Numbered from the stretch's first letter, positions 5,157 to 63,971 are shown. The stretch is 64,000 nucleotides of DNA from Patescibacteria group bacterium (GCA_028714495.1 JAQTMH010000002.1:163714-227713); one strand, 5' to 3'. Notes: a model not told the origin generated them from the letters alone. Program-made: numbers and translations.

Positions 5157-6091
5157 CGCGGAATAAATTTACTATAAATAGGCGTTTTACTAACTCGGTG
5201 GGTCAGATGCCAAGCCAACCCTTTCAACCGATGATGAAAAACTTTTATTTCTTTCGGAAAGTAGAATAGCAGATTGACAAACATGATAAACACGAACCAA
5301 GGAATGAAAATCAATCGATGATAAAATCTTCCGTGTTTTCTGATGAACATGATTGAATTTCGTGTATCATAGTACACTGTCAAAGGATTGCGAACATTAC
5401 CGCCCACTGACGCGCCCTCCTTATGATATATCTTCGACCCAGGCTCGCACAATATTCGATAACCGGCTTTAAATAACCGGTAACCCAAATCTACGTCCTC
5501 GGCGTAATAAAAATATTCTTCATCAAAATAACCCACTTCTTTTAAAGCCCGACAAGAAGCCATAAAGGCGCTGCCTGAGAAATATTTTAAGGTATATTTT
5601 CCATCGTCTTTAAAACGGGTGGGATGAAAAGTACCGCCGATAAACCTCCAGCCCGTATATAAACTGAGGATGCCACCGCGCGAATGGATAATTTCTCGCT
5701 GGTGATATAAATGGATTTCCGGGCCAACAATACCGCAACGAAGATCAGATTCAGCCCTAGCCACTAATCGATCTAAAAAATCAGGCTTAACTACCGTATC
5801 ATTGTTCAGAAACATTATATACTTACTATTCCCCTCAGTTAACACAAGGTTAATGCCGACATTATTTCCACCGGCAAAGCCTAAATTCTTTTCATTTTGA
5901 ATTAACCGAATATAATTACCGAATTTCTCCCTAAGTGTTTTTACATCGTCGCCCTTCGAATCATTATCCACGATAATTATTTCGTAGTTTGGATAAGAAA
6001 TCTGACGCAAAGAATTTAGACATTCAATGGTATCATTGAGTCCGTTCCAATTGATTATCACAAACGAGACACGTGGTTTAGAGCTTATCAT
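5153..6091 (-). CDS. Glycosyltransferase family 2
   Basis: VSFVIINWNG...DNDSKGD, GFAGGNN, FLNNDT and YAEDVD motifs. It overlaps the neighbouring genes by 4 nt, as in an operon. Confidence 0.75.
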   Translation of the reverse strand: MISSKPRVSFVIINWNGLNDTIECLNSLRQISYPNYEIIIVDNDSKGDDVKTLREKFGNYIRLIQNEKNLGFAGGNNVGINLVLTEGNSKYIMFLNNDTVVKPDFLDRLVARAESDLRCGIVGPEIHLYHQREIIHSRGGILSLYTGWRFIGGTFHPTRFKDDGKYTLKYFSGSAFMASCRALKEVGYFDEEYFYYAEDVDLGYRLFKAGYRILCEPGSKIYHKEGASVGGNVRNPLTVYYDTRNSIMFIRKHGRFYHRLIFIPWFVFIMFVNLLFYFPKEIKVFHHRLKGLAWHLTHRVSKTPIYSKFIPR

Positions 6092-43345: not shown

Positions 43346-43855
43346 CTAATCGGGACAACGAGTCGACCAGGTCACTGCTGGTTCGCCTTGAATAAAAGAA
43401 GTCGGAGGAATGTTACAATTATTTTCTTGGGGTCCCTTTTCCAGCATGAAGTAAAGCGCGTAGGAATGGGTTCTGCCCCCCTGGTCTGTAGCGTCTGTCA
43501 TATAAACGTACATATTTTGATTTGGATTAGCGTGACTGCCAGGGTCTCGAGGTGGCGGGGTGATATATTCTTGCAGCCAAGGGATCCAGTATTGAACAGC
43601 TGACATTGAATTGCATGTCCATCTACCGCTGCCAGGAGGAGACTCTTCACAACCGCTTGGCGGGTAGTTTGTATTATCATGATAATACAAAGCCATAGCT
43701 GTCTGGAGAGTTGAAATATCAGCTCGCCGCCTGGCATCACGGGCTTTAGCGCGGGAATCCTGCAATGTTATTATCAGCATAGTGGACAGCAGGCCGATTA
43801 TGGCAATCACCACGAGCAATTCAACCAGAGTAAAACCTTTCTTGTGGTGCTCCAT
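43346..43855 (-). CDS. Type IV pilin / pseudopilin-like protein (prepilin N-terminal methylation motif)
   Basis: The N-terminus KKGFTLVELLVVIAIIGLLS is a class III signal peptide (G|FTLVE). It lies between gap and fba. Confidence 0.65.
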   Translation of the reverse strand: MEHHKKGFTLVELLVVIAIIGLLSTMLIITLQDSRAKARDARRRADISTLQTAMALYYHDNTNYPPSGCEESPPGSGRWTCNSMSAVQYWIPWLQEYITPPPRDPGSHANPNQNMYVYMTDATDQGGRTHSYALYFMLEKGPQENNCNIPPTSFIQGEPAVTWSTRCPD

Positions 43856-57751: not shown

Positions 57752-57890
57752 AACTGCCTTAAATTGTACAATAAAAAAACGTTATTATCAATATAACGCT
57801 TAATAGGCCCCTTCAGTGCGAGCGGGGTAACAGGGTTTCGCTTCGGCTCGAGGCATGACAGAATTTCCCCCGCACCCCTCTTATGCCAGC

Positions 57891-58466
57891 CTACGCTTCC
57901 GACGACGATTTTTTCGTCGGGTTTATCATAATCCAGTGTTTGTATTCTGAAGAATTTTGGTGAGGGAGATGTAATTTTCTTTTTTCGCCAAAATTTCTAT
58001 CTGAAATATAATAAACGTTTTTCGCGCTAAGACGAATATCCTTATCAAACCAATTTTCAAATGCCCTAAACCCTTTCGTCTGCGTCAGGCGCCAAAGCAG
58101 ACTCAATTGAGTGTCGGTAGAAGTATTATTATTTGTAAAACGGACAACCGCTATATGGTTCGAGGGTATTAAAATATCTTTGCCCGTATCGGCTGTCACA
58201 AAAATTGTTTTCCAGTTTTTGTGCGAAATAACATCGGATATTTGAGTATCAGTAGCTCCTGCGAATGCAACCAATTCAACTTTGGCAATCGTTAGTCCAA
58301 AGAAAACATCCGTTATGCCCTGAGCAGCGGCTAAACCAAAAACGTTTTCATCAAACACAACTACTGTTCGGCCGTCCTCTGGAATTGCAGAGTTAAAATC
58401 CGAATTGGTAGTTGAGGGATTAAAAGAAGATAAAAATAAATTGTCATTCTGAAATTCGTCAATCAT
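57891..58466 (-). CDS. Hypothetical protein, downstream partner of the proteasome-like gene
   Basis: 191-aa ORF whose ATG overlaps the stop of the upstream gene (ATGA). Predicted alpha/beta fold (VVVFDENVFGLAAAQGITDVFFGLTIAKVELVAFAGA). No family recognised. Confidence 0.45.
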   Translation of the reverse strand: MIDEFQNDNLFLSSFNPSTTNSDFNSAIPEDGRTVVVFDENVFGLAAAQGITDVFFGLTIAKVELVAFAGATDTQISDVISHKNWKTIFVTADTGKDILIPSNHIAVVRFTNNNTSTDTQLSLLWRLTQTKGFRAFENWFDKDIRLSAKNVYYISDRNFGEKRKLHLPHQNSSEYKHWIMINPTKKSSSEA

Positions 58467-59197
58467 GCGGTAAGCGTTTTATTTTTTATAAAACTCGCCT
58501 TGTCGGGAGTAATTACAAGTACATCAACGGGGCCACCGACATTTTTGGGGCGAGCTTGAAAACGAATTGTGTCAATCGTTGCCTTGATTGCAAATTCTGA
58601 AAAATCTATTGCGTCTTGCAGTGGCATGGCATCCCAAATGATAGGAGCGGGTTGGCGTAATACTTTTTGTGTACCAGTCTGATCGGCAACAACAACTGGA
58701 GTAATAAGTCCGGAAATTACATCAGCTTGGCCAGACCATGTTGCCCCATATGCAAGCGAGTTGTCTGGTTTTAGGTTTCTGCGAGAAACTTCGTTGCGAC
58801 CAATATGACAATAAAAAACATACGGAACGCTCACTTTGCCGTCTTTCTTATACCCGCAAACATGGAAACCACAATCTGTTTTTCCAAATTCTTTTGCAAA
58901 AAAATCGACGAGCTTGCGGGCGATTAATTCTACATCATCAGTATCTTTCAAAACTTCTTCGCTGAAACGCTTTATATGACTTGCCATTGGTACGCCGCCG
59001 AGCAAATCCTGTCCAAAATTCGAAATACCCACCTTCTGTTTTTCAAGAAGGAAGGTTTTTGTAACGGCATCAGAGTTTACTGTTTCCACATTAAACTCTT
59101 TGCCATCGGGACTTTTGCCGGAAATGGTAACAGACTGGCGACTATCAGACGCCATTGCGATACCTTCTGGAACATATGTTGCGACAACTAAACTCAT
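58463..59197 (-). CDS. 20S-proteasome-beta / HslV-like Ntn-hydrolase homolog with Ser at position 1
   Basis: Alignable to archaeal proteasome beta. The N-terminus M-S-LVVATYVPEGIAMASDSRQS matches T1..GxxxAxDxR (Asp17/Arg19 equivalents present). ...YGATWSGQADVISGL matches the YASTGSGS Ser129/Gly130 block. No propeptide. Confidence 0.5.
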   Translation of the reverse strand: MSLVVATYVPEGIAMASDSRQSVTISGKSPDGKEFNVETVNSDAVTKTFLLEKQKVGISNFGQDLLGGVPMASHIKRFSEEVLKDTDDVELIARKLVDFFAKEFGKTDCGFHVCGYKKDGKVSVPYVFYCHIGRNEVSRRNLKPDNSLAYGATWSGQADVISGLITPVVVADQTGTQKVLRQPAPIIWDAMPLQDAIDFSEFAIKATIDTIRFQARPKNVGGPVDVLVITPDKASFIKNKTLTA

Positions 59198-59203
59198 AAA
59201 GAT

Positions 59204-59232
59204 ATTATATTTTAATAATTAGATTTTGTCAA
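59204..59232 (-). promoter_or_regulatory. Perfect consensus sigma70 promoter (TTGACA, 17-nt spacer, TATAAT) reading the minus strand; predicts a leaderless transcript
   Basis: Minus-strand -35 at 59227-59232, -10 at 59204-59209. The -10 ends 6-7 nt before the ATG at 59197, and there is no SD. Confidence 0.45.
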
Positions 59233-59330
59233 GTTTTATGCTAGATTTAATTCCAGAATTTTTTCACCGGGTACTATCTCTCGCTTTTTTTTGATGGCTA
59301 TGCTATCCGAAGCTCCAAAGGAGTGAAGGC

Positions 59331-59351
59331 TGGTGCGCCGTGGAGGATTCG
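59331..59351. repeat. 21-bp direct repeat of the tRNA-Lys 3' end, an att-like footprint
   Basis: tggtgcgccgtggaggattcg is identical to 59489-59509, the 3' end of tRNA-Lys including CCA. The sequence diverges after the T-arm. Confidence 0.6.
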
Positions 59352-59488
59352 TGTCCTGGGCAGCGGCGACCTGCCACTGGCAGCTCGCCGATCGCTCGTC
59401 TGTCGCTTCGCTCGGTCTCGCTCCTGCCCTTCGAATCCCCTTCATGGTACAAGGCTGATTTCTGTATTTAAACTGAGCGTGGATTCTA

Positions 59489-59565
59489 TGGTGCGCCGTG
59501 GAGGATTCGAACCTCCGACCGTCTGCTTAAAAGGCAGCTGCTCTACCAGGCTGAGCTAACGGCGC
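59489..59565 (-). tRNA. tRNA-Lys (anticodon UUU)
   Basis: The reverse complement reads GCGCCGTTAGCTCAGCCTGGTAGAGCAGCTGCCTTTTAAGCAGACGGTCGGAGGTTCGAATCCTCCACGGCGCACCA. It forms a cloverleaf with anticodon loop CTTTTAA and an encoded CCA. Confidence 0.8.
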
Positions 59566-59672: not shown

Positions 59673-60476
59673 TCAAGTCAATGAGCCGCTGAAAAACACA
59701 GGCTCCTCAGTCGGAGTGAATGTTGACCGACTGGTCAGCAACGGACCGCTAATTCGGAATGTTGGAAATCTGTCCGTCTGACCCCTGGTCGGATCTTGGT
59801 CGTCGTTGAGTTCATGGAGCACGCCCGAACAAACGATGAATTCCGGTCCGCCACAGAGCCGACTCCATTCTGGATGCGTGAGCAGGAGAATTGCCACTTC
59901 AAAGGGCGTGAGGACAAACCGGCTTTGCATGCGGTTTGTTTCACTGATCGCGCGAGTGAAATCACGGTCTGGCACGGTCAGACAAGTGACAGACACGACC
60001 ATGAAGTCAAATTCATCGAATGTAGCGATGTGCTGAATGTGTTCATTCGCGATCGAGAAGGTAGGTCCTAGGACAGATTGAAGATCGAAGCCCGAGGTGA
60101 TGGACGTCACGAATGGCTGGCGCGACATCAGCAGAATCAGGGCGTGATAAAGCGCCAATCGGTAATGGCTGCTTAGTCGGTTTGGATTTGGGATGACTGC
60201 CAGACTTCTCTTTGGCCCGCGTGTGAGCAATGCTTCGGCTTGCGGACGCACTGGCTCTGCGTTGAATCTCTGGAACAGTGGCCACTCGAGCAATAAATCT
60301 AGCTGCTCCTCCCAGGGCCGAAGCTCACAGGGCTTCTCCAGTCTGGTCGAGCCGATAATCTTCTGAAGTAGGCAGCTTACCTCATGCGGATCTCGCTGGC
60401 CATCGACTACCAGTTTGCTAACCGTTGCCCATTGCCGGAACAATCGGTCTCCGGCCCGGACCGCGACACTACTCAT
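59673..60476 (-). CDS. Hypothetical protein, GC-rich (about 55%), probably horizontally acquired
   Basis: 267-aa Arg-rich ORF. The codon usage is atypical for the window. It is flanked by tRNA-Lys and a tandem repeat region. No family recognised. Confidence 0.4.
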   Translation of the reverse strand: MSSVAVRAGDRLFRQWATVSKLVVDGQRDPHEVSCLLQKIIGSTRLEKPCELRPWEEQLDLLLEWPLFQRFNAEPVRPQAEALLTRGPKRSLAVIPNPNRLSSHYRLALYHALILLMSRQPFVTSITSGFDLQSVLGPTFSIANEHIQHIATFDEFDFMVVSVTCLTVPDRDFTRAISETNRMQSRFVLTPFEVAILLLTHPEWSRLCGGPEFIVCSGVLHELNDDQDPTRGQTDRFPTFRISGPLLTSRSTFTPTEEPVFFSGSLT

Positions 60477-60619
60477 GTCATTTCTCCTTTGAAAAGAGCC
60501 TTGGTCAACAGCTGACTGCTCATCAGCCGGCTCATCTCACTTTGAGACGAGCACAATTAAATTAAGCTAATAATGCTGATTTGTCAACCCCAGACTAGTT
60601 TGCCCTTCAATGTGTTCAG

Positions 60620-60925
60620 GGGTGAAGGGGCGTCTCCTTGGTTGCCTTATGAATCCCTGACCCAGGATTCCGATCCAGGGGAAAGGTCTCCTACTCTATG
60701 GAGATGCTTCGTTTCACTCAGCAATTCAGGACAAGAATCCCTGAACGTAGTGAAGGGTCTCCTACTCCAGGGAGATGCTTCGTTTCACTCAGCAATACAG
60801 AACATGAATCCCTGACCCCGAGTCATATCGAGGGGGAAGGGTCTCACAATGATAAAAGTCGTTCTCGGTTAGGAGATCCTTCGGCCAGGCCTCAGGAATA
60901 CAGACCAAGTATCCCTGACCCCGGA
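60620..60925. repeat. Degenerate tandem repeat: 4 units with a 56-83 bp period
   Basis: Each unit starts g(g)gaagggtctc and ends gaatccctgac(cc). Units 2 and 3 are about 90% identical and include the hairpin tctcc-tactcYRg-ggaga. There are no unique-spacer/short-repeat CRISPR features. Confidence 0.5.
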
Positions 60926-61007
60926 CTCCCTGCGCCTCTCAGACCTAAACCCTTCAAAGACCTTTTTTATATTTGACTATCTTTTTCATCTGGAGCAAAA
61001 TATAAGC

Positions 61008-61505
61008 ATGGAAGAAATCGCGAAAAAAGACGCCCTGGCCAAAGCCAAAGAATGGCGGGCCGCCGGTAAAATCTGGCATTTTCATCTGCTGACGCCTGAT
61101 TGCGTTTTCAATGAAAGCAATGATAGACACGCCGTAATCTTGGAAAATACCGAGGACGAACAAATCTTCGTGGTTTATACTGACAAGCGTTCCCTGACCA
61201 TGGGCAAAATCCTGCTAAAGCTCCTCCATGGCAGCAAGGTCCTGGATCGGCCAAAGCGAGCTGCCCCGCCGAAAAACCCGGAGCTCCAGAAATTGCTGAA
61301 CCGGGCCAAGGAAATGAATCGCCTGGGTATTCCCTGGCACCACCACAATCTTTTTCCCGATTGCCAATTTAACGACCACGTGGGGCAGTGGAATATCGTG
61401 ATGGAGGACAAGGATAAAGGCAACCTGCTCGAAGCCGCCTACAACACCGAACCGAAAGAAGACATCAAAGAAATCGAGCGCCTTTTCTACGCACAGAAGG
61501 AATAA
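61008..61505 (+). CDS. Small protein with an internal tandem duplication (two WHxH-L-x-PDC-xFN domains); function unknown
   Basis: KIWHFHLLTPDCVFNESNDRHAVILENTEDEQIFVV aligns to IPWHHHNLFPDCQFNDHVGQWNIVMEDKDKGNLLEA. The only plus-strand gene in the terminal island. Confidence 0.5.
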   Translation: MEEIAKKDALAKAKEWRAAGKIWHFHLLTPDCVFNESNDRHAVILENTEDEQIFVVYTDKRSLTMGKILLKLLHGSKVLDRPKRAAPPKNPELQKLLNRAKEMNRLGIPWHHHNLFPDCQFNDHVGQWNIVMEDKDKGNLLEAAYNTEPKEDIKEIERLFYAQKE

Positions 61506-61559: not shown

Positions 61560-61597
61560 GCCCGGATATTCATCTAGAATACCGGGCAAAGGAACGA
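61560..61597. terminator. Bidirectional intrinsic terminator between convergent genes
   Basis: gcccggatattcatctagaataccgggc, flanked by an A-run on one side and a T-run on the other. Confidence 0.45.
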
Positions 61598-61613: not shown

Positions 61614-63971
61614 TCAATTGCCTTCAGGCTGACTGCCCTGCCTGGAGACAATCTCCAGCCGTTTGTTCTCGTATCCCCTTCGCTTGGCTTTCACCTCCCA
61701 GGTGAATCCCGAGCTACTGCCTGAGGGATCGATGATATCGAAACCGGTCTTTCCGGGCTGGTAGTACCAGTTTCCATGGGGCCCAAGGAAAGACGCGTTG
61801 ACGATGAGCGGATATTCATCCGAGATCGTCACGAGTTCAAGGAACAGAGGGTCAAGCTCGACATGCGCAATTCCGTTCACTAACTGGCCTCTACCCAAGT
61901 CAGAAAGGTGGCCCTCTGTCGATGTAGAAACATAGCTCTCCCTCATTTCACCGCCATCTTCCTGAACCATAGAAATACCACCAGTTGCCTCAATTCTGCC
62001 GATGCAGTAAAGGCCCAGGGCACTACTGTTTGGCATCTTGATGTAGACGCCTGTGCCGTTCACGGAGTTATTCTCCGCCAGAATAGTCCTCGCAGAACCA
62101 GTCGTGTGTTTTGAGATTGCCTTCACGGCAGCCGCGTCGGCATTGCTGGATTCAATGTCTCCTTCAAGTCCATAGACGATTCCTGATCCATGGACAGCTT
62201 CGCCAAACACGCCAGCCGGCACACTGGAATTTGAGCCTGATTGCTTGTAACCATGCGTTCGCCCAAGAACTCCGAAAGTAGCGCCCCCAACAGTAGCCCC
62301 GGTATCAAGTGCCATTCCGTAAACTCCAACAGCCGCCGCGCCTCCTGGATTGGGTTTTCCTTTTGCACGCGTTATCCCTTTCACACCATATGTCGCATTC
62401 TCGCCCTCGTACTTGTTATCCGCTTCGATAGCGGATTGATCCTGGCTTCCCACTGAAGCAGTGCCGGCTCTCACGAGGATACCATGACCTTGACCTTCGT
62501 TAACCACCCGTAGAACAGGGACACCCAATGACGTGTTGTCTCTGACATGAAGTTTGTTTTCCGGATCAGCAGTCCCCATTCCAACTCGTCCGTCTGTCAT
62601 CGCGGTTAGAATCCGCGTGCCGCCGGAAGCACCCTCAGTATCGATGAAAAACTGGTCCACGGCGCCCCGCTGGTCGACCAACATCCTCCAGAGATTCTTG
62701 TTTGGGTTCAGCCGCACCTCGGTACCGTCGTAGTACCCGTTGAAGTTAATTGCCTGGAACCCGCTGTTTTCACCGGGGAGCGGTTGAATGATGATGTTGG
62801 AATTCGCAGTACCATCCGTAACGCGCAATCCCCGATGAGTCAACTGTTGGCATTGTACCGTGAAGCGGCTTTGAGGCGTCGAAGTGCCGACTCCGACATT
62901 GCCAGAGTTCGTACTGTAAATGTCATTGCCAGAGCCAGCCCAGTAGGATGTCCCCGCGGCCGTAGTCTGCACGGTGCCGTCAGGGAACTTGAAACCTCCG
63001 GAGGCCGAGTGGATTCGACCTACCACCTGCAGTTTCTCCGTTGGATCAGTAGTGCCAACACCGAGATTCCCGCCCACGAAACCATCCTGATATGATCCAA
63101 ATCCATCGGCATCAGCCCAGAAATAGGTGAGGGTGGCTCCATTGTTCTGAACGCCGAAGTATCCATTCGCACCAGGGATACGAGCAGCCAGATTCGTGTT
63201 GTCGCTATACCACCCGGACAATACATTTCCCATTCCTTGAATGCCATTAATGCCGAAGATCTCTCCGCCCTGAACACGCACATCCCCATTGACATCAAGG
63301 GCATGGGCTGGGTTGGCCGTCCCAATCCCGACTTTGCCATCCTTACGAACAAGAAAACGTGAGTTGGTTTCATGGGACAGATGGGCCAGATATCCTTCAG
63401 TTGAGCCCGAACTTACGATGAACAAACCCTCACCATTCTTGTAGGCAAGTCGCACATCTGACGAGTTGTCTCCCAGACTGTTCGTAAAGCGCGCTGCCCA
63501 GTCATCACTATGGCCGTCAACATGAAGACGAGTGATAGGTAAAGTTGTCCCAATCCCCACATTACCATTGCCCAAAACGCAAAATTCGGTACCCACCGCG
63601 TTGCTCACCTGGAACAACCGTTCGGTCAATGGCACATTCCCTAAGCCGTTAACCAGCATCAGTTCATGCGAGCCGGTTAGATAGAACGGCCACATGGCTG
63701 AACCGCCATCGAAGTGAAACTTGTATCCAGGGTTGCTCGTACCGAATCCGATATAGCCCGGGTTCGTGTTGTAGATGTTGCCGTTCGACTCGGCCCAGTG
63801 GCTGTCACCACCTCCGCCCGTTCCGGAGGAATCAGCATAGGCCGCGTGGGTCGCGTAATCAGCAGTTTCCGCGTGACTAGCTGCCCGGGCTGAATCAGCC
63901 AGGGTAGCCTCTTGGGCGGTCTGCGAAGATACTGCCTGATTGGCCATCTGTGTCAGAAACGCGTATGGCAC
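61614..63971 (-). CDS. Large Gly-rich repeat protein resembling a tail fiber or beta-helical adhesin (5 or more 'GxGTxxP' repeats), GC-rich
   Basis: Repeats NVGIGTTLPITRLHV, KVGIGTANPAHALDV, NLGVGTTDPTEKLQV, NVGVGTSTPQSRFTV and RVGMGTADPENKLHV resemble tail-fiber-domain proteins. About 55% GC. Has its own terminator. Confidence 0.5.
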   Translation of the reverse strand: MPYAFLTQMANQAVSSQTAQEATLADSARAASHAETADYATHAAYADSSGTGGGGDSHWAESNGNIYNTNPGYIGFGTSNPGYKFHFDGGSAMWPFYLTGSHELMLVNGLGNVPLTERLFQVSNAVGTEFCVLGNGNVGIGTTLPITRLHVDGHSDDWAARFTNSLGDNSSDVRLAYKNGEGLFIVSSGSTEGYLAHLSHETNSRFLVRKDGKVGIGTANPAHALDVNGDVRVQGGEIFGINGIQGMGNVLSGWYSDNTNLAARIPGANGYFGVQNNGATLTYFWADADGFGSYQDGFVGGNLGVGTTDPTEKLQVVGRIHSASGGFKFPDGTVQTTAAGTSYWAGSGNDIYSTNSGNVGVGTSTPQSRFTVQCQQLTHRGLRVTDGTANSNIIIQPLPGENSGFQAINFNGYYDGTEVRLNPNKNLWRMLVDQRGAVDQFFIDTEGASGGTRILTAMTDGRVGMGTADPENKLHVRDNTSLGVPVLRVVNEGQGHGILVRAGTASVGSQDQSAIEADNKYEGENATYGVKGITRAKGKPNPGGAAAVGVYGMALDTGATVGGATFGVLGRTHGYKQSGSNSSVPAGVFGEAVHGSGIVYGLEGDIESSNADAAAVKAISKHTTGSARTILAENNSVNGTGVYIKMPNSSALGLYCIGRIEATGGISMVQEDGGEMRESYVSTSTEGHLSDLGRGQLVNGIAHVELDPLFLELVTISDEYPLIVNASFLGPHGNWYYQPGKTGFDIIDPSGSSSGFTWEVKAKRRGYENKRLEIVSRQGSQPEGN

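Follow-up and report, generated by a model that had tools for sequence, protein, structure and literature searches.

The DNA analysed here (the window) is a stretch of 64,000 nucleotides from a Patescibacteria MAG, in which a block of degenerate repeats separates two divergently transcribed genes. The gene on the left of the block (59673-60476, minus strand) encodes a 267-aa protein without known family, and the gene on the right (61008-61505) encodes a 165-aa protein with a 99%-identical counterpart in GCA_028717285.1. For comparison, five loci, orthologous or related, were fetched via the 165-aa protein; these and all other loci are referred to by L numbers. Note that the 165-aa protein contains an internal duplication (WHFHLLTPDC / WHHHNLFPDC), belongs to no Pfam family and has only six relatives among 5.8 billion proteins, whose genes have varied neighbours (NAD kinase, cupin and short-chain dehydrogenase genes). 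The block occupies 385 bp and lies between two divergent -35 boxes, as follows:

60559-60564, minus strand: -10-like TAATTT of the 267-aa gene, predicted by sequence reading
60582..60587, minus strand: promoter-like -35 box TTGACA of the divergent 267-aa gene, predicted by sequence reading and retained in L004 and L005
60588..60972, no strand assigned: the whole inserted block, missing in L004 and L005 and present in L006 minus a 71-bp doublet
60973..61001, plus strand: TTGACT-17-CAAAAT, the promoter-like site of the 165-aa gene, lying downstream of the repeats and found by consensus scan and retained in L004 and L005

Comparison with L004 and L005 (72% protein identity) indicates how the block came to lie where it does. 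Both loci retain the divergent 267-aa gene beside the 165-aa gene, in both the intergenic region is 166 bp with TTGACA and TTGACT 18 bp apart, and in both the repeat is absent, so that 18 bp stand where the window has 385 bp. Because the gene pair and both boxes are kept without the block, the block lies upstream of both promoter-like sites and is dispensable to both genes. The block was thus inserted into, or grew within, the interval separating the -35 boxes of the two divergent promoters. The initial annotation had placed the array at 60620-60925; this extent is too short, as it is 60588-60972 that is missing from the orthologous locus.

The L006 locus is a closer relative, with 97.4% nucleotide identity to the window in the ATPase region and 98.4% over the array and the 165-aa gene. 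It carries the same block minus exactly one 71-bp doublet, and where the window has two of the units first described (U2 and U3) L006 has a single unit that is a U2/U3 chimera. This is what would be expected of recombination between two units, and the comparison shows a copy number that evidently changes by inter-unit recombination, one doublet having been gained or lost. (Note that the 267-aa protein is only 84% identical between the window and L006, though the flanking DNA is 97-98% identical; this gene would be either fast-evolving or recombined. Its 5' leader, 60477-60560, is strongly conserved in L004 and L005 despite the divergence of the protein, gives a sub-threshold match to freshwater-2 (RF02980; 20.9 vs. 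49.9 bits) and may be a conserved cis-regulatory leader.)

That a degenerate repeat array is present at this site is confirmed by three kinds of evidence. Tandem Repeats Finder reported a period of 71 with 1.9 copies, 90% matches and a score of 228 at 60681-60815; a repeat search of the region gave two 64-nt copies with 91% identity, together with 33-nt and 10-nt repeat families common to the 64-nt copies and the fourth unit; and the motifs said to begin and end each unit are enriched. With at most one mismatch, GAAGGGTCTCC occurs 5 times in the window (0.94 expected) and GAATCCCTGACC occurs 4 times (0.40 expected), numbers attained by none of 100 shuffles in either case, and all end-motif matches in the 64-kb window lie inside the array except one at 43638-43648. 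The start and end motifs hold as enriched sequences and are inexact in some units: U1 starts with gtgaaggggcgtctcc and lacks the ggaga partner, whereas U2 ends with gaatccctgaac and U4 with gtatccctgacc. The tctcc...ggaga hairpin is real and is found, with a 25-nt loop, in U4 too.

The unit itself had to be redrawn. The unit first described amounts to a direct repeat of 56-93 bp; its register is offset, starting in the middle of one element and ending in the middle of the next but one, and it was dropped after RNA folds of it on either strand gave weak z scores (+1.4 to -1.9). Parsing by regular expression, combined with folding, indicates instead that the basic unit is a REP-type hairpin element of 29-43 nt present in both orientations, of which six complete and about four partial copies alternate in orientation over 60588-60972. 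Conserved boxes of the array are complementary to one another (ATCCCTGA to TCAGsAAT, GAAGGGTCTCC to GGAGATsCTTC), which makes the array a series of long imperfect palindromes; the hairpin originally described is, as read from the sequence, only their tip. The copies, each given on its tag strand in the order tag/5' stem/GA/inner hairpin/GA/3' stem/tail, and the remnants at the edges of the block are:

60595..60640, no strand assigned: degenerate remnants at the 5' edge, an inverted a-type element (minus strand: CCCT-GA-ACACATT-GA-AGGGC) and an a-type 3' half
60649..60691, plus strand: REP a1, ATGA/ATCCCT/GA/CCCAGGATTCCGATCCAGGG/GA/AAGGT/CTCC (regex parse, inner fold)
60700..60728, minus strand: REP b1, TGAA/TTGCT/GA/GTGAAAC/GA/AGCAT/CTCC (regex parse)
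60733..60762, plus strand: REP a2, AAGA/ATCCCT/GA/ACGTAGT/GA/AGGGT/CTCC (inner part an AC-GTA-GT mini-hairpin)
60771..60799, minus strand: REP b2, TGTA/TTGCT/GA/GTGAAAC/GA/AGCAT/CTCC (regex parse)
60804..60846, plus strand: REP a3, ATGA/ATCCCT/GA/CCCCGAGTCATATCGAGGGG/GA/AGGGT/CTCA (CCCCGAGTCATATCGAGGGG being the inner hairpin)
60872..60902, minus strand: REP b3, TGTA/TTCCT/GA/GGCCTGGCC/GA/AGGAT/CTCC (regex parse)
60907..60962, no strand assigned: remnants at the 3' edge, an a-type 5' half, GTATCCCTGACCCCGGACTC, and, on the minus strand, a fragment GA-AGGGT that reads CCCTTCAAAG on the plus strand

In general, an element opens with a 4-nt tag and the 5' stem half ATNCT and closes with the 3' stem half AGN'AT and a CTCC tail; between the stem halves lies a mini-hairpin of variable length (often xx-GNA-xx) with GA on either side. 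This layout is found in all six complete window copies and in L006, L009, L010, L018, L023, L024 and L025, and N is complementary to N' in each copy of the window. The tag is TGTC in relatives; in the window it is TGTA, TGAA, ATGA or AAGA, matching TGTC at no more than three of the four bases. The inner hairpin of the window copies is GT-GAA-AC, AC-GTA-GT, GGC-CTG-GCC or a longer stem-loop; it varies in the a-type copies, and these variable hairpins are the linkers a, b and c, which recur in the MAG JAZDMR01. The tail of a3 is CTCA in the window and CTCC in L006. At the 5' edge the plus-strand a-type 3' half reads GTGAAGGGGCGTCTCC and overlaps the inverted a-type remnant, and an inverted repeat of 34 nt there is 71% complementary to a2; the 3'-edge remnants are supported by two direct repeats and by sequence reading. 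Given the degenerate tags and the one mismatch or bulge in the 5-bp stem, the window copies may be decaying relics.

The a- and b-type copies are arranged tail-to-tail in three doublets, a1/b1, a2/b2 and a3/b3, with spacers of 8 (60692-60699), 8 and 25 nt (60847-60871), and successive tags face each other over 4-nt spacers. DNA folds reproduce the nested hairpin architecture. The doublets of the two subtypes can form hairpins and are strung head-to-tail; three of them, with the remnants, make up the architecture of an E. coli BIME or Pseudomonas REPIN cluster.

Pairing is well supported by comparison of copies. In an alignment of 8 copies, 86% of the cells of the 29-pair doublet palindrome are paired, as against 37-45% when the partner is slid, and two double compensatory changes divide the Patescibacteria copies from the cyanobacterial ones. 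Moreover, N and N' are complementary in all 158 right-arm matches listed from viral contigs (T/A in 86, C/G in 58 and G/C in 14). (Note that the GA/GA positions were preset by the viral search pattern, so that only the Patescibacteria and plasmid copies provide independent evidence for them.) The N:N' pair lies inside one arm rather than between arms, and the two arms of one doublet can differ, as in Planktothrix (C:G in the left arm, T:A in the right). The fact that this pair is internal to the arm and that pairing between arms is often mismatched at this position argues that each arm is its own hairpin. Among the matches listed, the inner hairpin of the viral set is mostly GCGNAGC or GCGNNAGC, both of which are mini-hairpin DNA of extraordinary stability (PMC13037366). 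G-T and A-C wobbles are balanced, 18 to 15, without strand bias. The balanced wobbles, taken with the mini-hairpin core, favour a hairpin formed at the level of DNA, probably in ssDNA, over a strand-specific RNA, and the element probably acts in that form.

The pairing data also bear on whether the array is transcribed and acts as RNA, be it as tandem sRNAs (the repeated small RNA of the initial annotation), as protein-sponge hairpins or as a leader or cis-regulator of the 165-aa gene. Folding is slightly better than that of shuffles (z = -1.9 both for 60600-61010 and for U4), the cluster at L009 follows a giant gene and precedes a terminator-like hairpin, so that it would be transcribed as a 3'UTR, and many REPs are transcribed (PMC3733652). 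However, Rfam 15 gave nothing in the array at E ≤ 10 and nothing relevant in the region, the whole window or related loci, and the best match in the region (20.9 bits against a threshold of 49.9) lies outside the array. The block is upstream of both conserved promoter-like -35 boxes, a consensus scan of both strands of 60300-61200 revealed no other promoter-like site, and the orthologous locus without the array keeps both genes. In addition, the elements point both ways, the L010 cluster being antisense to both of its neighbours; the wobbles show the balance given above; and C-G-closed GNA triloops are a motif that stabilises DNA (PMC13037366). An RNA role for the array is therefore unlikely, and we give it only a slight probability.

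Two overlapping ORF calls (60573-60815 and 60698-60976) had been set aside initially as artefacts of the repeat, and we agree. Both frames are open, and related elements do lie in-frame within real phage and plasmid ORFs (including L025), as might be expected if the calls encoded small repeat proteins. The peptides, however, have no Pfam match and no homologue at E ≤ 10 (for the translation of 60698-60973, among 5.8 billion proteins), and L004 and L005 lack the block. Furthermore, the 71-bp L006 indel breaks both frames; not being a multiple of 3, it alone rules out both ORF calls. With no conserved coding frame running through the homologs, the idea that the block encodes repeat proteins is effectively refuted. 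The earlier judgement that the array is not CRISPR also holds: orientation alternates, there are two subtypes, and the variable stretches are hairpin loops or spacers of 4-25 nt, partly repeated between units, unlike the uniform direct repeats of 23-50 nt and the unique spacers of like length that make up a CRISPR array.

The surroundings of the block differ between strains. Between the P-type ATPase gene and a tRNA-Lys gene (59489-59565, minus strand) lies a strain-specific insertion, 57797-59341, that is missing in the 97%-identical L006 and contains two co-directional ORFs of 191 and 244 aa with only sub-threshold Pfam, PADLOC and PHROG matches. A 21-nt exact direct copy (59331-59351) of the tRNA-Lys 3' end (59489-59509) lies 137 bp from the tRNA gene and is followed by about 85 nt of GC-rich palindromic sequence (59352-59440) that includes a TC-GCTTCGC-TC motif; both the copy and the palindromic arrangement are kept in L006. 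From its sequence, 59331-59440 resembles either an att-type scar or a pseudo-tRNA carrying an insertion. On the other side, synteny with L006 ends at 61560, directly after the 165-aa gene, making this a second strain-variable boundary: L006 continues with unrelated genes (His_Phos, radical SAM), and the window with a minus-strand ORF of 785 aa (61614-63971) that has tail-fibre PHROG matches (E = 1e-13).

The initial annotation had raised the possibility that the array consists of regulatory protein binding sites or att-arm-like sites of the adjacent mobile region. In support of an array of att-arm or iteron-like protein-binding sites serving the variable or mobile region by tRNA-Lys, the locus is strain-variable, it has the 21-nt copy of the tRNA-Lys 3' end at 59331-59351, and L006 lacks both the two genes at 57797-59341 and everything beyond 61560, including the tail-fibre-like gene. 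But the array is common to the window and L006 despite their differing flanking islands, no integrase is adjacent in the window, and L004 and L005 have the 267-aa gene beside the 165-aa gene without the array. The same elements, moreover, recur at unrelated loci of other genomes, among them loci without tRNA, integrase or phage genes. Given that strains with differing islands have the array in common and that it recurs without integrases, we consider such a role highly improbable. The reading as regulatory binding sites fares no better, given that the flanking gene pair exists without the block.

We looked for other occurrences of the unit, as the initial annotation had suggested. A pattern for the full unit found two real loci in the genome collection, both on contigs of JAZDMR01 (L009 and L010), and one in metagenomes, a soil contig (L018) with a single doublet. 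The clusters at L009 and L010 are a-b-a clusters with the same a/b alternation as in the window and unrelated gene contexts. At L009 the cluster follows a 2463-aa ORF and precedes the terminator-like hairpin; at L010 it lies between Ig/FG-GAP surface-protein genes and PspC/LiaF genes; and the L018 copies have a DUF433/PIN pair on one side and another gene on the other. A profile made with nhmmer from the Patescibacteria copies scores the copies at L009, L010 and L018 and finds no further copy in the window, whose 64 kb hold one cluster only. As the element occurs elsewhere, the unit is not confined to this locus. (Note that upstream of the L010 cluster, at 5270-5470 on the minus strand, there is a possible 26-codon ORF or small RNA, without Rfam match, that ends in a terminator-like hairpin and a T-run.) Four other metagenome matches (L019-L022, three of them identical) were judged on reading to be due to chance, as were all 7 matches of a looser partial pattern in viral contigs and L146, a viral match to the arm pattern of the Patescibacteria variant in which N and N' are not complementary and the sequence is apparently coding.

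Relatives of the element occur in cyanobacterial plasmids and in viral contigs. The first lead came from a palindromic repeat, TGTCATTCTGAGCGAAGCGAAGxATCTC...GAGATxCTTCGCTTCGCTCAGAATGACA, which we take to be widespread and a synthetic consensus of which matched cyanobacterial plasmids. By blastn the whole block has no match at E ≤ 0.01 in plasmids or phages, but a search of 7.3 Gb of plasmids with one window unit (60731-60803) independently gave, as the best matches, the same elements in Planktothrix and Gloeothece; their E-values of 2-6 are individually weak, but there are 4-5 places per record. The Planktothrix plasmid p1 (L025, 731-1015) has an intergenic tandem array of 3 units with a 98-bp period, the unit of which agrees with that of the window at 44 of the 58 positions in the arms; common to the two are CCTGAACGTAG, GTGAAGGxTCTC, GAGATxCTTCGTTTCACTCAG and ATxACAGA. 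In particular, a2 shares with the Planktothrix unit the stretch CCTGAACGTAG..GTGAAGG.TCTC, and in b2 GAGATxCTTCGTTTCACTCAG matches Planktothrix save for the covarying x, which is G in the window, C in L023 and T in L025. The TGTC tag is carried by L018, L023, L024 and L025, by Planktothrix and Calothrix plasmids, and by viral contigs, at least 120 of which match the TGTC-type right-arm pattern (GAGATNCTTCG-N3-12-CTCAGNATGACA). The viral copies occur singly, as inverted doublets (loops of 1-37 nt) and as tandem arrays (periods of 78-88 nt, for example in L090 and L120). The a/b doublets are shown to be dispersed at unrelated loci of another genome and to have relatives in other phyla, although it is by short similarities that the window copies are tied to the cyanobacterial and viral family.

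Some arms lie within genes. At several sites in L142 single TGTC-type arms are in-frame in phage ORFs, where they encode ..ILRSAQDDK.., and in Planktothrix (L025 2307-2450 and 3903-4100) TGTC-type arms, surrounded by TGTCATTCTGAGCAT repeats of 21-24 nt, lie in an annotated BREX PglX gene that is over-long. These in-gene arms recall the Rickettsia palindromic elements found within genes.

Like E. coli BIMEs and Pseudomonas REPIN clusters (PMC3116915), the block consists of inverted doublets that can be folded into one larger hairpin (six copies, with the 86% of paired cells given above) and has two alternating subtypes, doublets clustered in tandem with their flanks, an extragenic position, variable copy number and singlet remnants. 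In REPIN tandem clusters, too, doublets are repeated together with flanking sequence (PMC3116915), and published REPs include dimers with structured spacers, grouped copies and intragenic copies (PMC3733652). Unlike REPINs, the block and its relatives have neither a RAYT gene nor a REPtron in the window or at the related loci, and the tag at the 5' end of the hairpin is not GTAG. Copies are dispersed to the extent of one cluster in the 64-kb window and two loci in JAZDMR01, and whereas REPIN families are usually lineage-specific, the sequence family of the window is common to several phyla. Counting against a REP reading, a position between divergent genes is the rarest for REPs (PMC3733652).

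In layout the element also resembles the CGTC-tagged REPs, a superfamily that includes Neisseria dRS3 and Rickettsia RPE-4/6 and in which TGTC and CCTC tags are allowed (PMC3733652). Shared with these are the unpaired TGTC tag of the relatives (L018, L023, L024, L025 and the viral contigs, the window copies having at most three of four tag bases), a stem starting A-T/T-A and a short C-rich tail. Dimers whose spacers are structured, copies in groups and copies lying in-frame within genes occur in both, and for neither is a dedicated transposase known. However, CGTC-tagged REPs have a continuous stem of 8-9 bp, a 4-5-nt loop and a CCA tail (PMC3733652), whereas the window family keeps the A-T/T-A start and has a 5-bp stem, a GA/AG internal loop, at least 2 bp more, a loop of at least 3 nt and a CTC(C) tail. 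Note that Patescibacteria are absent from the phyla listed with tagged REPs and that Cyanobacteria are listed only for GTAG-type families (PMC3733652).

The dRS3 repeat has since been extended to the 28-nt NTS (CGTCATTCCCGCGMAVGCGGGAATCYRG), which the small GIY-YIG nuclease SsnA cuts only as ssDNA (PMC11893778). Like the NTS, the element is an oriented hairpin of about 28 nt (CGTC-ATTCC..loop..GGAAT-CYRG in the NTS; TGTC-ATTCT..loop..AGAAT-CTCC in the relatives) that clusters near variable genes, and an action as ssDNA is proposed for both. Unlike the NTS, it does not match the formal SRM pattern, HGTCWYN(0-2)YYVSBRHN(0-5)WNVSBRGN(0-2)RNCYNB (PMC11893778), and tblastn with a single seed revealed no ssn-like gene, that is, no small single-domain GIY-YIG (cd10448), in the window or at related loci. 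The window has no exact match to this pattern; the TGTC-type relatives require 2 substitutions and, of the two window copies tested, b2 requires 3 and a2 requires 6. At 3 substitutions the pattern matches the window 521 times, so that specificity is lost, and a loosened version matches at the 5'-edge remnants (60595-60640). As judged from these sequence comparisons, the block resembles CGTC-tagged REPs and the Neisseria NTS in layout, yet fails their formal motif.

Among other modular intergenic repeats, Streptococcus pneumoniae BOX elements and mycobacterial MIRUs have variable tandem modules and are used as VNTR markers, but their modules are direct repeats rather than alternating hairpins and are not known to be related in sequence to the window block. 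Literature searches with the repeat DNA and peptide strings returned no relevant paper, the DNA strings giving unrelated eukaryotic ones only.

A search for a partner enzyme gave negative results throughout. Among 30 mid-size ORFs of the window there is no RAYT, IS200-type, Y1_Tnp or other transposase and no GIY-YIG, and no transposase, RAYT or GIY-YIG lies beside L009, L010 or L018. No GIY-YIG or transposase annotation is found on the whole Planktothrix plasmid, nor, as judged by eye, does any transposase occur among the genes bracketed by inverted copies at 121 viral loci; the REPtron-like bracketed genes in viral contigs look by eye like phage capsid or portal proteins and were rejected as candidates. 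Also rejected was the idea that the element is a miniature of the mobile gene for the "four helix bundle protein" (23S IVS protein), since the L025 gene is flanked by heptamer repeats and not by arms. One lead comes from L001 (4520-4935), where an ORF for an 85-aa single-domain GIY-YIG protein (Pfam E = 1.8e-11) lies at tRNA-Lys, between a duplicated 5' part of the tRNA-Lys gene, which carries an inserted hairpin with a 9-bp stem, and the intact gene. Its position makes it appear to be a small mobile nuclease gene that homed beside the tRNA. This is the only small GIY-YIG ORF seen, and because the L001 genome has no array it is only a lead; with it as the single seed, tblastn (a search of low sensitivity) found nothing in the window or at 146 other loci.

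Taken together, we consider it probable that the block is a non-coding cluster of REP-type elements (repetitive extragenic palindromes) that was inserted here, spreads as an ssDNA hairpin and has no dedicated role. The active form would be ssDNA folded into a hairpin, and spread would occur through a hairpin-specific enzyme supplied in trans, either a RAYT-type HUH/Y1 transposase or an Ssn-type small GIY-YIG nuclease. At this locus the cluster would have no dedicated regulatory role beyond moving the two promoters 367 bp further apart. More tentatively, by analogy with the NTS, the TGTC-tagged hairpin could be one widely transferred ssDNA element of Patescibacteria, cyanobacteria, soil bacteria and phages, the clusters of which modulate recombination or incoming DNA at strain-variable islands; we regard this as doubtful. 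If true, the clusters would be cut or bound as ssDNA, for example at the tRNA-Lys island, and would not be inert junk.

These findings settle the annotation of 60588-60972 as a repeat-element cluster: both ORF calls should be dropped, and the region should not be taken for a riboswitch, sRNA or CRISPR candidate. The block is ordinary in function and of mild interest for its host phylum, for a family that spans phyla and for the partner enzyme that is missing. The 71-bp difference in copy number is usable as a strain marker. REP/BIME-type elements exist in the reduced genomes of Patescibacteria, and their sequence family, in which one stem pair is always complementary and the core is a DNA mini-hairpin, extends to cyanobacterial plasmids and many phage-like contigs. 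It could serve as a test case in the search for the enzyme recognising those tagged REPs that lack a RAYT.
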